Below, piece by piece: positions 7,150 through 62,587 of a stretch of 64,000 bases of DNA. The stretch is from Rhina ancylostomus. Taxonomy: Eukaryota. The notes beneath the pieces are model-generated. The model was not told where the DNA came from and searched no databases. It worked only from the letters and a program-made list of their open reading frames with translations. The translations under genes and the position numbers were made by a program. The first letter of the stretch is position 1, and each line of letters starts with the position of its first letter. The DNA is taken from NCBI GenBank assembly GCA_030265395.1, contig JARFYF010000002.1, positions 58,946,478 to 59,010,477 of the forward strand, read 5' to 3'.

Positions 7150-7985
7150 CATGATGGTATCTGGCATGAAATAGTCAGTCACTACCATCAAAAACACTAT
7201 TCAGAAGGATTAAGGGTTGTGTTCAGAGTAATAGCTGGTTTATTTCCTCTGGATTAGTGGGATGGAATTGAGGAAAAATTTCCTTACTCATAGGATGTGT
7301 TGTGCCACAGTTAAGTGGGATTGTTCACAGATCCGATAGAAATAAGCCTTGCACACGCAGTACTGCACACCACACACTTTATTGCTAAGTTACAACAAGT
7401 AGTACTTATCACGGAAGTGCGCCTGAGCCCGTTTAACTGCAGCGTCCCGTTCCAGTTGGTCCACAGTGTCAGTCGCGACCTGGGCTTTAGTGAGCCCAAA
7501 TGCAACAGAGACCTTACCACAGATGTGCTCACTCTTTTATGCCCTGGTCACTTCTCAGAACCCCTACCTGGGTCTATCCTTTGTTCAGGTTGACCCATCA
7601 CATGACCATTGCCTTGGGCACTGCAGGCTCACGTCTGCAGAGACAATACCTTGGTTACTGAGTACCCAGGTCAACCTCCCGCCACCCTACCACCACCCCC
7701 CCTCCACACACACACGCACACACACATTTGATCTCAGCAATTGTTCCTTGAGGTCTCTGGCCAACATTTCAAGATTTTTTCTGCATGATAATGACTGGAA
7801 TTCACTTCTCTGGACACTTATTCATTGATTTCATTCAAAACTGAGATTGATAGACTTTTTGTATACTAGATGAATTATGGGATATAGCAGGAAAATTTTG
7901 TTGAAGTGAAAGATCAGCCATGATCTTGTAGTGTATGCTTGAAGGGCTGAATGGCCTACACCTATTTCTACTTATGTTCTTGCTG
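7150..7985 (+). mobile_element. CR1 LINE 3' end, split by an LTR-like insertion
   Basis: GAGGAAAAATTTCCTTACTCATAGG (left) continues as TTCAAAACTGAGATTGATAGAC...GATCAGCCATGATCTT...GGGCTGAATGGCCTAC...TTATGTTCTT (right), the CR1 3' region of shark-type elements. Confidence 0.7.
7298..7766 (-). mobile_element. Candidate LTR (family C), about 469 bp
   Basis: TGTTG...CAACA termini; minus-strand TATA-like CATAAAAG (7534-7541) followed by AATAAA (7378-7383); CpG-rich relative to flanks; inside a CR1; no TSD resolved. Confidence 0.55.
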
Positions 7986-21497: not shown

Positions 21498-21825
21498 TAA
21501 ATGATTTTATTTCCTACTGGGAAGATATAACAAGTGGAGGGTCCAAAGATCAGTTCTTGGCCCTCAATTGTTTACAATCGATATGGATCATTTAGAGGAG
21601 ACAGAGTATAAGGTATTCAAGTTTGCTGATGACATGAGAATAGATGGGAGGGCATGTACAATGAAGATAGAGTGACCCTGCAGCAGATTATAGATGGGTT
21701 CAGTGAGTAGGTGAAAACTTGGAAAATGAAGTTCAATGGAAGAAAATACTGAGGTCATGCACTTTGGTAGGAGGAATCAAAAGGCAGATTATTATCTAAA
21801 TGGAGGGAAACTCCAAATGGACAGA

Positions 21826-22220
21826 TTAATATCAATAAAACTGCTGGTTTTTAAGATGCCTTTTAAAAACAAAAGTTTTGTTTTTAATGCTATCGATAAT
21901 TCTCTTCTTAATTAAAAATAAGATTAGTTACGTTGGCACCAGGATTGATCTTCGGTTAAGGTGTTTCAGGTGAATAGAGTGTTAAACTCGAGGGATGGGG
22001 TCAACATTTCCTGAGGGCAAGGTTTGCCGACCGGAAGGTAGGATTATTTAAAACATACTTCATTCCCCCATTTTACTCCTTGGTTTTAAACAAAGCATCA
22101 CAATTCAATTGGATGATATTATAAGAAGGTTTGTCAAAGAGTATCAACATTTGCCAAGATGTGTCAGAAATGAACTCCCTTATTCTGGGATTAGGGATGG
22201 TGGTGCGGCGATTCCCGTAC
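21826..22220 (+). mobile_element. R2-type (RLE-clade) non-LTR retrotransposon RT C-terminal/thumb fragment
   Basis: Frameshifted translation INKTAGF / KISYVGTRID / KLEGWGQHFLRARFADRKVGLFKTYFIPPFY / LDDIIRRFVKEYQHLPRCVRNELPYSGIRDGGAAIPVL resembles R2 motifs (KCHGF, YLGV, LKP.QK..LL.TY..PR..Y, LD..IR..VK.WLHLP...LYS..RDGGLG); flanked by TGGACAGA repeats. Confidence 0.75.
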
Positions 22221-22489
22221 TGGACAGAGTGAAGTACAGGGGTTCAAGGTGTGCTGTGCATGAAGAACAAAACATTAGCATTCAGGTGCAGGAGGTAATT
22301 AAAATGCAAATGGAATATTGGTCTTTATTGCAAGTGGGTTGGAGTTTATAAATAGGAAATGTTACAATTGTACAGGATGTTGGCGAAGCCACATCTGGAA
22401 TGCCACGTATGGATTTGGTCCCCTTGGTCCCCCTCTCTAAAAAGGATATACTGGCACACATGACTGTCCAGACAAGATTTACAAGGCTA

Positions 22490-58269: not shown

Positions 58270-59300
58270 NAATATCAGGGATGCAATAGTAATCCATCAG
58301 GACAGAGAAAGTCATCTTAGGGCTATACAGCATGCCTTCTGGAAGAAAAAGTTTGTGTTATACTGAACCAAATCAATTTTTTGAGTGAGCCACCAATCTA
58401 GCATATGGAAGTAACTCAAAATTATTCACCTGCTTTTAAGAAAGCATTTGACATTACCTGAATTAAATATTATTGATAGTTAGGGGTCTCTTAATCAAAG
58501 AATCATGTGGAATCAGGAAATCTATTTCTGTGATTTGAGAATTGATGCATGCCATTTATCAGAAATGGTTATTTGTGGGTTTGGATGGGAGATTAGTTAC
58601 AAGTCATGTCCTGTAAGCTTCAATGTTAGCTCCTGTAATTCTTATTGTTTTATCACAATTAGCTAGATTTATAGCTCGTTGGTGGCTAATATTTCTCTTT
58701 TGAGTGTTTTGTCAGGGTTTTAATGGTGCCAGTAGTTCTAATAAAGTTAATAAAGATAGCAGTAATTTTAATAATGGTAGGGATCCTGTTAATACTGTTA
58801 GTTTGAATAATGTTGATGGACAAATCACTGATATATTAAAAAGAACACAAAATCAAAAGAAATTAAAAATTAAATAATATTAATAAGTGGAGATTAATAA
58901 CTATTGGTTCAATTTTACTGTATAGACTTCTACACAATGATGGCAAAAATAGTTGTTCATGAATATTGTTCTTAATCCAAGAGGGAAAAGGTTTTATTTC
59001 AGCTGCATCCAACTGTAATGAAAATATTGGCATTATTCAGAATATAATGAAGGACAGGAATGACATAGATGTGAGCTTGTGAGCATATTCAGGTACATAG
59101 CTGTGGCCTTTGATTCTGTGGGGCATAAATTATTAGTTAAGCCATCAAAATAATTTAGTGTGATGCATATGGACTGGATAAATGCTAAGCAAGCATAGAC
59201 TGTATGGGAATGTATTTAAACTATTGGTGGAAGAAAGAGAAGAGGATCACACGCTCATCATTCAAGATCCAAGGCCTAACTCAGGAAAAAGCAAGCAAGT
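58270..59300 (+). mobile_element. Old CR1 RT fragment interrupted by an R2-like 5' piece
   Basis: CAGCATGCCTTC (QHGF-like), AAGAAAGCATTTGAC (KAFD), GTTACAAGTCATGTCCTGTAAGCTTCAATGTTAGCTCC (VTSGVPQGSVLGP-like). Confidence 0.55.
58685..58818 (+). mobile_element. Second, short copy of the R2-like 5' region
   Basis: Colinear with 59982-60106 (GCTAATATTTCTCTTT...AGGGTTTTAAT...TTTAATAAT.GTAGGGATCCTGTTAATA.TGT.AGTTTGAATAAT.TTGATG). Confidence 0.75.
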
Positions 59301-59981: not shown

Positions 59982-60570
59982 GCTAATATTTCTCTTTGGT
60001 GTGTTCTGTAAGGGTTTTAATTGATTTAGTAATACTAATAAAGATTGTGGTAACTTTAATAATAGTAGGGATCCTGTTAATAGTGTCAGTTTGAATAATA
60101 TTGATGTGGTTGACAGTAAAGAAGATAATGATGAGAATGACTTAATTGATAATAATTGGGAGAGTAATAGAGGTAATTATGATAATAATAGTGAAAGTAG
60201 TGGGAAGATGAAGGTAAAATATCCCAGTGATAGACTTTTATGTGGGTTCTGTGTCAAGGAATTTATAGCATTTAATGTATTTAAAAAGTACCTTGAGAGG
60301 CAGCATCCCAAGAGTGAGATTGTTGTTGAATGTGATAAGTGTGGTAAAGAGGGTAAATGTCATGGTATTGCATGTTATTACCCGAGATGAAGGATTGGTA
60401 TAGTATGTGCTGAAGAAGGAGTGGTTAAGGGTAGTATAGATAATGGTGATAGGGTTATGGTGGATACCAACAAGGATGCATTTCAATGCGAGTTGTGTGA
60501 TAAGTCATTTGGTTCCAGGATTGGTTGAAGTCAGCATGAAAGGCATGGACATCCTGTGTCTAGGAATGTG
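59982..60570 (+). mobile_element. R2-type retrotransposon N-terminal region: Asn/Asp-rich leader and three zinc fingers (pseudogenised)
   Basis: One frame: CGFCVKEFIAFNVFKKYLERQH, CDKCGKEGKCHGIACYYPR*, FQCELCDKSFGSRIG*SQHERHGHPVSRNV; the CCHH-CCHC-CCHH order and the IGL.QH.R..HP..RN signature are those of R2-A lineage proteins. Confidence 0.85.
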
Positions 60571-61370
60571 ATTTTGGTATTGGTTTATTATTGTCACATG
60601 TACCAAGGTACAGTGAAAAACATGACTTGCATACCATTTGTACAGATCAATTCATTACACAGTGCATTGAGGTAGTGCAGGGTAAAATGATAACACAATG
60701 CAGAATAAAGTGTTACAGTTACAGAGGAAGTGCAGTGCAGGCAGACAATAAGGTGCAAGGTCATAATGAGGTAGATTGTGAGGTCAAGAGTTCATTTTTA
60801 TCGTATCCGAGGTGTGTTCAACAGCGGGATAAAAGCTGTCCTTGAGCCTGGTGGGACATGTTTTCAGGCTTTTGCATCTTCTGCCCAATGGGAGGGGGGA
60901 GAAGAGGGAATGTCCGGGGTGGGTGGGGTCTTTGATTATATCGGCTGCTTTCCCAAGGCAGTGGGAAATGCAGACAGAGTCGATGGAAGGGAGGCTGTCT
61001 TTGCGATGGACTGAGCTGTGTCCACAACTCTCTGCAATNNNNNNNNNNNNNNNNNNNNNNNNNNNNNNNNNNNNNNNNNNNNNNNNNNNNNNNNNNNNNN
61101 NNNNNNNNNNNNNNNNNNNNNNNNNNNNNNNNNNNNNNCTCAGGCTCCTGTATCTTCTGCCTGATGGGAGAGGGGAGAAGAGAGAATGATCCGGGTGGGT
61201 GGGGTCTTTGATTATACTGGCTGCTTTACCAAGGTAATGAGAAATATAGACAGAGTCCATGGAGTGGAGGCTGGTTTCCATAATGCTCAGGGCTGTGCCC
61301 ACAACTCTCTGCAGTTTCTTGTGTTCCTGGGCAGAGCAGTTGCCATAACAAGCCGTGATGCATCCAGAAA
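60571..61370 (-). mobile_element. Rex1/Babar 3' end with tandemly duplicated segment, inserted into the R2-like fragment
   Basis: Minus ORF contains twice (S)LPSIDSV.ISH.LGKAA.IIKDPTHP.HSLFSPLP.GRR..SL; tail complement TTGGTATTGGTTTATTATTGTCACATGTACC. Confidence 0.88.
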
Positions 61371-61560
61371 GTTAAGAGAGTGGTGGTTGCAGATATTAAT
61401 GATGTTAATGTAGTGAATTCCGTAATGAAGTGGGGTAGATGTCGATTGGAATGGATATTAGAGGAATTTGTCAAGTTCCTTGAGCTAAATAGAAACTATA
61501 AAGGTTAAGAAAATATATTAATATGTTAATTGCAGAGGAGATGGCAATTAAGATGGATGG
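61371..61560 (+). mobile_element. R2-type Myb domain fragment continuing from 60570
   Basis: VKRVVVAD...EWILEEFVKFLELNRNYKG* then frameshift KYINMLIAEEMAIK; resembles R2 Myb W..EE...L..L...F.G.KNINKLIAE...TKT. Confidence 0.75.
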
Positions 61561-62587
61561 TAAAATGGGAGTGCACTTACTCACATTTAAAGAGTACCAG
61601 AGTACCAATTAATATGTGAACTTCTGAAACCTACAGGTCTTTAGACCAAGTATGAGAAATAGGATTTCACTGGATAATCATCTGGGCCAATCTAAACATG
61701 TTAGACTCATTCTATGCTAAAACAATCTGAGAGTCTACGAAGATCCTCCATGATAAAAGTGACTTGGCTGGCATTAAGCCACATTTTGGTAGAAATTTTA
61801 TCATGATTTGATCCTTCTAGACCTTCTGAGATAAAATTCTGCATGAAAGAAATCTGTTGGAAAAAATGTGTAGTTTGAATGTTAATCCAGATTAGAAACT
61901 GGTTAAAGTAATAGGAAGGAAAGAATATTTGCAAGAAATAGAATTTCAGGTGGTGGGGAAGGGACGAACCGAATTTCTCAGATGTAAAGGCATGTGAGCT
62001 ACATTATGTTCCATACAACCATTACTTGCTTAGAGCTTCTGCTAATATGCCACGGTAACTTCAGAACAAGACTGGCAGAACCACAGATGGATTTGCAAGT
62101 AGTGCTTCTGCCCATCTACCACCAATATACTAAGTTACTGTGCCTGATCAGGAGAAACCCAGAGGAAACACCTGGTGTAAGTATAAGCTTGATGAATTTG
62201 CTGACATGACCAAAAGTCAGGATCTCAGTAGAGAGGGAGGATGCAGCTGTGAGCTTATAGAGGAATTTAGGCTGGTAATGCAATTTGGTAAGCCGATTTA
62301 AAATTAAACATAATATTGATAAACTGCACGTGTTAATAATACATCATAATAATGCAACAAAAAGAAATGTCAGTATCTATCATTTGAAAATACTTTCAAC
62401 AATTAAACTTTAAAATTATGCTGGAGAAAGCAAACCAGGCAAGTCATCCTGGTTTCTGAATGCAGCCTGAAAAAGTAATTAAACTCTGATTTAGTTCATT
62501 CTATAAGTTCACTCATCAAACAAGAACACTCTGTTTGACCTCATGTTCAAATTCACCCATCAATCATATTCTCATTGGCCTTGGGAA

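Follow-up and report, generated by a model that had tools for sequence, protein, structure and literature searches.

Decayed R2 fragments outside the ribosomal DNA of Rhina ancylostomus as probable strays of an old 28S-targeting lineage

Introduction

Does R2-like sequence in a region devoid of ribosomal DNA indicate that its parent lineage had lost its 28S rRNA gene target? The question is raised by a stretch of 64,000 nt of Rhina ancylostomus DNA (hereafter, the window), for which an initial annotation, made from the sequence alone, proposed a dispersed, possibly non-site-specific R2-A family in a cartilaginous fish. Families confirmed as non-specific include R2NS-1_SMed and R2NS-1_CSi, some copies of which are over 98% identical to their consensus; in the accessible part of the same source, non-specific R2 is listed only for a planarian and a fluke, and an angel shark R2 is given with a 28S junction (PMC5035012). 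The accessible parts of PMC12247875 and PMC13188248 describe chondrichthyan R2s as inserted in 28S and sponge homologues as non-specific, and the R2-like BLAG elements of the cockroach Blattella are likewise presented as non-specific in the portion available of PMC7650587. Section 7 of PMC13580325 cautions that present-day locations can mislead on targeting; rDNA sheds copies faster.

Results

A decayed R2 fragment split by a LINE

The window holds the three R2-like pieces originally annotated, at 59982-61607, 58685-59150 and 21823-22224 (Table 1). The first of these preserves, in decayed form, the ZF3-ZF2-ZF1-Myb region of a lineage-A R2, split by the insertion of a high-copy LINE. The frame starting at window position 59983 reads as previously described, with an Asn/Asp-rich leader followed by CGFC..YLERQH, by CDKC..HGIACYYPR and a stop, and by FQCELC..IG, a stop and SQHERHGHPVSRNV, and contains two TGA stops within 60025-60570. 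The lineage-A order of fingers, CCHH-CCHC-CCHH and then Myb, is present in this copy, though in decayed form (Tyr for His, two stops, Myb frameshift). The joining of the two halves across the insert is in frame, as a natural uninterrupted homologue (L002) aligns over the junction. The damage had been attributed to single-base changes, which holds for the change from Cys to stop, read as TGT (Cys) in orthologues, but not for the Myb part, which is also frameshifted.

Table 1. Features of R2 origin, and the later insertion, in the window.
Positions	Strand	Feature	Remarks
21823..22224	+	R2 piece 3, from the C-terminal/thumb part of RT	Locus L072 is 69% identical
58685..59150	+	R2 piece 2: leader followed, after a large internal loss, by early RT motifs (about 58856-59150)	Leader matches 59982-60106 at 79% identity
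59982..60240	+	Asn/Asp-rich leader of the R2 ORF, the variable region ahead of the fingers	5' end of copy cut
60241..60306	+	ZF3, CCHH type	Tyr in place of the first His; FIAFNxF motif common to group II copies
60331..60390	+	ZF2, CCHC type	TGA stop in place of the final Cys codon, which is TGT in orthologues from two other organisms
60487..60552	+	ZF1, CCHH	TGA stop at 60526-60528
60571..61369 (about)	-	Later insertion, 3' fragment of a very high-copy LINE	100-N assembly gap at 61039-61138
61370..61607	+	ZF1-Myb linker and Myb domain	Frameshift near 61506; copy's end

The focal fragment itself has no RT, and none was found downstream of it in the remaining window or in the next 9.5 kb; RT sequence is present in the second and third pieces. 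A ribozyme remnant upstream of the focal copy was also sought, and the ribozyme-core profile had no match anywhere in the window. The 28S motif and the Rfam rRNA models were both unmatched across the window, in agreement with the earlier remark that no 28S lies beside the fragments, and no rRNA was found in 15 extended loci. Contigs from two other organisms (runs X2 and X4) contain the locus, including both insert junctions, at approximately 97-98% and 93% identity, and position 60390, the site of the first stop in the window, is T (TGT, Cys) in both orthologous contigs; a further run, X3, extended over just a small part of it, and for RNA no holder of the stretch was listed. To judge from these contigs, the window locus is an old, fixed fossil, and the copy has no evident function now. 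The sense strand of 60025-60570 contains only 8% C, versus 13% in the full-length copy L020 and 21% in the intact R2 ORF of contig C188; strong cytosine depletion is a feature of group II, the lineage defined below.

The two insert pieces that flank the assembly gap are 82% identical, and the repeat is present at very high copy number (28 3' ends in 574 kb). The initial annotation called the insert Rex1; the high-copy LINE insertion is confirmed, the name is putative, and Pfam had no match on the insert's frame. The same LINE fragment occurs in the same orientation, a few bases off the same post-ZF1 point, at L032:7881 (G000 C51, about 34.39 Mb), in an R2 copy only 33% identical to that of the window. 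The shared insertion point may reflect a local insertion preference or chance, the repeat being present about once per 20 kb.

Identity as a lineage-A R2

The R2-A identity assigned by the initial annotation was upheld by a protein search in which the best PDB matches were three vertebrate R2 proteins, 9NL2, 9DOU and 9NL3, with E values from 2.8e-7 to 3.1e-5, versus at least 0.0088 for host zinc fingers. In a search of 1.84 billion representative proteins, poly-zinc-finger proteins attained the top summed scores by way of many repeated short matches, and the eight inspected matches covering the query in full as a single stretch were all R2-like, with Pfam identifying RT in five and Myb in two more. 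Word-based protein searches using the decayed fragments returned no matches. Searching the genome at the protein level yielded 17 matches, 15 of them beyond the window. One of them, L020, is a full-length element in a decayed state, with an RT nearest to that of lineage-A R2; the RT piece of L020 gave in turn 71 matches, 30 of which were retrieved. The RT and RLE of L020 and 12 other sister copies nest among R2s.

Two R2 lineages in one genome

Contig C188 (locus L075) carries an intact R2 of 1291 aa with 28S on both sides, and the named proteins nearest to it come from Scyliorhinus and Chiloscyllium, in keeping with the cartilaginous-fish host deduced earlier. Trees were inferred from the region spanning RT to RLE, leaving out rows with fewer than 230 (C188-anchored) or 170 (turtle-anchored) filled columns; the cutoff for the finger tree was 70. 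With either anchor, the trees place group I, comprising C188 and relatives 65-95% identical to it, apart from group II, a clade of 13 decayed copies that retains 13 of 13 rows with support of 96/96 (C188 anchor) and 96/100 (turtle anchor) and has 15 group-specific columns. The sister of group II is group I together with the other shark R2s, a placement that covers only 13 copies per tree from about 60 loci tallied and that attraction among decayed sequences can affect. A clade with R2-1_CPu was marginally rejected (AU p 0.039); the identification of group II as R2-1_CPu itself was discarded on this marginal rejection and on summed scores that are similar to all shark R2s. About 60 distinct group II loci, a lower bound, bear out the claim of a dispersed family. 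Among long copies, identity ranges from 60 to 71%, with a median of 65% over 48 pairs.

The window copy presents 11 group II versus 2 group I residues over the 15 diagnostic columns, and the second piece 6 versus 2 among 12. In the finger tree the window copy falls outside a group I clade with 100/99 support, the tree being otherwise without resolution. By the 15 columns and this poorly resolved tree, the window copy scores as group II.

The long group II copies combine three fingers, Myb, RT, zinc knuckle and RLE with a predicted HDV-type ribozyme core at the 5' end. The coding architecture is that of the lineage-A vertebrate R2s R2Tg (PDB 9DOU/9NL3) and 9NL2 and of the 28S-inserted chondrichthyan R2-1_CPu, R2-1_CPl and R2-1_SAc (Table S2 of PMC13188248), and the canonical 28S 3' junction is likewise shared with these R2s, which have an HDV-type core of the kind predicted in group II. 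The C188 R2 belongs to the same clade, has the same target and is also dispersed as strays, but it shares only about 32% amino-acid identity with the window fingers, differs in its 3' UTR, and has left strays that are younger (65-95% identical) and mostly internal fragments. Unlike the intact shark R2s tested, to all of which it is sister, group II is known here only as decayed copies outside rDNA. No intact member was found in this genome, the rDNA array of which is barely assembled, such that group II copies surviving there could be missed. Group II would be a separate, apparently extinct and probably undescribed branch of vertebrate R2. The literature, as far as its text was accessible, describes neither this lineage nor a non-specific R2 in a vertebrate; Repbase and Dfam were outside the comparison, and a closer published relative is possible.

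Termini and leader of group II copies

A 5' core that aligns with the HDV-type ribozyme of C188 is kept in 12 group II copies. In the 11 copies aligned with C188, the predicted, decayed core largely retains P2 and P3 pairing, with 73.5% of cells paired versus 20-62% when slid, and 13 of 500 shuffles scored as high; Rfam yielded no ribozyme match. Partners for the P1 strand are found inside the element, at -100 to -129 (13.0, versus 11.0 in control windows), and the 28S leader is an almost equally good partner for the P1 strands (12.0). In our reading of the part of PMC13188248 accessible, the 28S-inserted R2-1_CPu likewise appears to have a G-rich P1-like strand at its own junction. A self-contained ribozyme was considered as proof of independence from rDNA and set aside as non-discriminating, since P1 also pairs with the 28S leader.

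The 3' UTR motif was dismissed as a group II-specific marker, being also present in the 28S-inserted R2-1_SAc; its pattern has 19 matches, about 9 of which are R2-related and the others due to chance or without assignment. No conserved 3' UTR structure emerged, RNAalifold giving zero pairs. The leader, described originally as an unusual low-complexity feature, proved to be neither conserved among group II copies nor unusual, the 28S-inserted bamboo-shark R2s having long, variable, Asn-rich pre-finger and inter-finger stretches according to Table S2 of PMC13188248. On the minus strand of L145 (835-1520), a 5' ribozyme region of group II and the 3' UTR motif stand together within about 700 nt; this is an internally deleted derivative, possibly non-autonomous.

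28S junctions of group II

On initial view, 12 group II 3' regions share a terminal motif and then diverge, with 0/12 matching 28S. Upstream 28S was absent from 12 of 12 group II 5' ends and turned up in no other group II copy either. The 600-nt flanks of the 12 3' and 12 5' ends are mutually unrelated by blast; three copies have both ends outside rDNA, and the full-length L020 (4269 bp) and L092 (4386 bp) lie in unrelated flanks. Two readings of these ends were tried and rejected: no alternative target repeat is shared among the flanks (2 of 66 pairs, weak, with z over 3), and the 5' ends resemble a degenerate 28S leader no better than controls do (7.0 vs 6.5 of 13; 9.3 vs 9.3 of 20).

A search for the 28S half-site directly 3' of the R2 site returned 19 places, 14 of which follow R2 3' ends, and 6 of the 19 follow group II-type ends. 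These six ends, recognized by profile match (L210, L211, L212, L220 and L225) or by the terminal motif (L221), are joined to the canonical 28S site and continue into 31-310+ nt of 28S. L211 has 16 group II versus 2 group I diagnostic residues and 260 nt of 28S, and L220 has 28 versus 5 and about 230 nt. The other four, with 31 to >300 nt of 28S, are group II by 3' UTR or terminal motif only: coding residues stand at 4 vs 4 in L225 and 1 vs 2 in L221, and L210 and L212 contain no coding part. Judged by coding residues, only two of the six joined copies, L211 and L220, are firmly group II.

The true group II 3' end lies 29-35 nt past the anchor used earlier. At +27 to +33, a range picked after the joined copies had been seen, TAGC occurs in 4 of the 12 free ends versus 5 of 228 control windows (p about 1e-4); the other eight have no TAGC at their terminus. 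The 3' end of L092 matches 10 of 12 28S bases. A comparison that had spoken for a non-specific family, 0/12 3' ends against 5/8 in the living lineage (Fisher p 0.0036), is void, both because its anchor fell about 30 nt short and because the 28S-joined copies were unsampled. Free and joined ends come from searches with opposite biases, and a ratio between them is invalid. Since the joined copies cover several different terminal hairpins, several group II subfamilies would have resided in 28S, and the six joined 3' ends together with TAGC at 4 of 12 free termini argue that the group II sources sat there. Canonical 28S insertion is hence seen for group II on the 3' side, and not for the window copy itself. 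The tabulation of 3' junctions suggested at the outset accordingly gave a divided result: unrelated, non-rDNA flanks do occur, but six group II-type ends are at the canonical site, and these same-lineage copies (L211, L220 and four more) leave the proposed loss of 28S targeting without support.

Discussion

Origin of the window copy

The window feature is a dead 5' R2-A fragment, a likely stray of an old 28S-targeting elasmobranch lineage, group II. Its source elements would have resided in rDNA and been co-transcribed with 28S, their RNA being copied occasionally into ordinary chromosomal DNA. Three routes could have led there. Off-target priming by the R2 protein itself would leave true-terminus ends carrying no more of 28S than TAGC or some 12 nt at most, and would also account for the full-length copies of 4.3-4.4 kb; the copying of R2-28S read-through RNA would carry along 30-400 nt of 28S; and the machinery of other LINEs may have acted in trans, a route with direct signs only in the living lineage. 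The route taken by the window copy is unreadable because both its ends are missing. As the lineage was replaced, array turnover would have purged the rDNA copies while strays elsewhere persisted and decayed, and the window copy would afterwards have gained its LINE insertion, stops and frameshift. Weighing against a strict version of this scenario are the 12 3' regions without long 28S tails and the 12 5' ends without upstream 28S; such free ends amount to much own-machinery-like insertion for a strict element.

These same ends invite a second explanation, which we regard as rather unlikely: that specificity was relaxed or partly lost, with 28S still in use and wide insertion by the element's own TPRT requiring only TAG(C) microhomology, or with one sub-branch having left rDNA. 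The number of dispersed loci, the full-length L020 and L092 in unrelated flanks, the four TAGC termini among the 12 3' regions and the P1 partners inside the element can all be accommodated by it. Nevertheless, the terminal hairpins of the joined copies place several subfamilies in 28S, the P1 strands match the 28S leader nearly as well as their internal partners and have a counterpart at the R2-1_CPu junction, the opposite biases of the two sets of 3' ends leave no valid ratio from which to gauge relaxation, and, following the caution cited from section 7 of PMC13580325, extant locations mislead where rDNA loses copies faster.

A fully non-site-specific, R2NS-like family, as first proposed, is very improbable. 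It would fit the lack of rRNA in the window and in the 15 extended loci and the initial absence of 28S from 12 3' and 12 5' flanks, but the 3' count relied on the anchor placed about 30 nt before the true end, and group II copies (the six described above) are fused to the exact canonical site. Like R2NS-1_SMed, R2NS-1_CSi, Blattella BLAG and the sponge R2-homologous elements, group II has R2-type proteins at unrelated sites and unrelated flanks; unlike the R2NS families, it is not absent from the 28S site and shows no young, near-identical copies, its long copies being 60-71% identical. That the fragment is a C2H2 zinc-finger pseudogene of the host or stems from a different RLE clade (Utopia/NeSL), a reading to which the top summed scores of poly-zinc-finger proteins and the weak generic finger matches in Pfam might point, can practically be discounted, given the PDB matches, the R2-like RT proteins among single full-length matches, the Myb that follows the fingers, and sister copies that run on into an R2 RT and RLE falling within the vertebrate R2s. 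Best matches of this kind were among the refuting cases named by the initial annotation.

A position outside rDNA is no evidence that an R2 piece comes from a lineage with lost targeting: the living lineage has shed copies into the genome as well as the old one, and each junction has to be followed to its true terminus. This is a tangible instance of the caution voiced in the cited section of PMC13580325. If off-target TAGC priming was common, the fossils would provide natural off-target site statistics for lineage-A R2, a class of transgene insertion tools. Should group II instead represent, as seems doubtful, an undescribed elasmobranch R2-A lineage of loosened specificity, inserting full-length genome-wide by way of only a TAG(C) match and continuing to use 28S, the natural off-target insertions of R2 would be preserved as dated fossils in shark-type genomes.

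Strays of the living lineage and other 28S remnants

The last 573 nt of the living R2 have 31 matches, with read-through tails. The 28S tails of dispersed copies stop after tens to hundreds of bases, and long upstream 28S was found on none of the dispersed R2 copies. One group I stray, L080, starts at the 28S leader; ribozyme cleavage up to 36 nt upstream is mentioned in the part of PMC3774820 available. L105 is an internal piece of the living R2 with a target-site duplication and an A-rich tail, in the group I piece L108 a LINE 3' end comes after the 28S tail, and other group I pieces are inverted. L105, L113, L119, L103, L104 and L114 contain short embedded pieces from the interior of the living R2; the last five lie within repeats with abrupt ends or form inverted mosaics, a pattern suggestive of R2 RNA fragments having been taken up by other LINEs or at broken DNA.

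Four old R2 pieces (L083, L220, L221 and L211), three of them with 28S read-through tails, lie within 140 kb at G000 C36:31.25-31.38 Mb, a cluster that may mark a hotspot or be left over from the vicinity of a former rDNA locus. At L129:4900-5150 and 7174-7520 (G000 C52:104.53 Mb) there are two tandem R2-28S junctions, where a longer truncated R2 with about 330 nt of 28S comes directly after a short R2 end that carries about 60 nt. A 28S piece of roughly 45 nt, with an intact R2 target site at its center, is found within another repeat at L044:1495-1541 (G000 C94:51.07 Mb). An 850-nt 28S stretch on a chromosome scaffold (L043/L209, G000 C7:38.23 Mb), adjoining a gap, shares only 78% identity with the C188 28S and has the look of contaminant rDNA from a foreign source. 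At L081:6963-7943, next to a young stray of R2, lies an intact ORF of 327 aa that by eye reads like a seven-transmembrane receptor.
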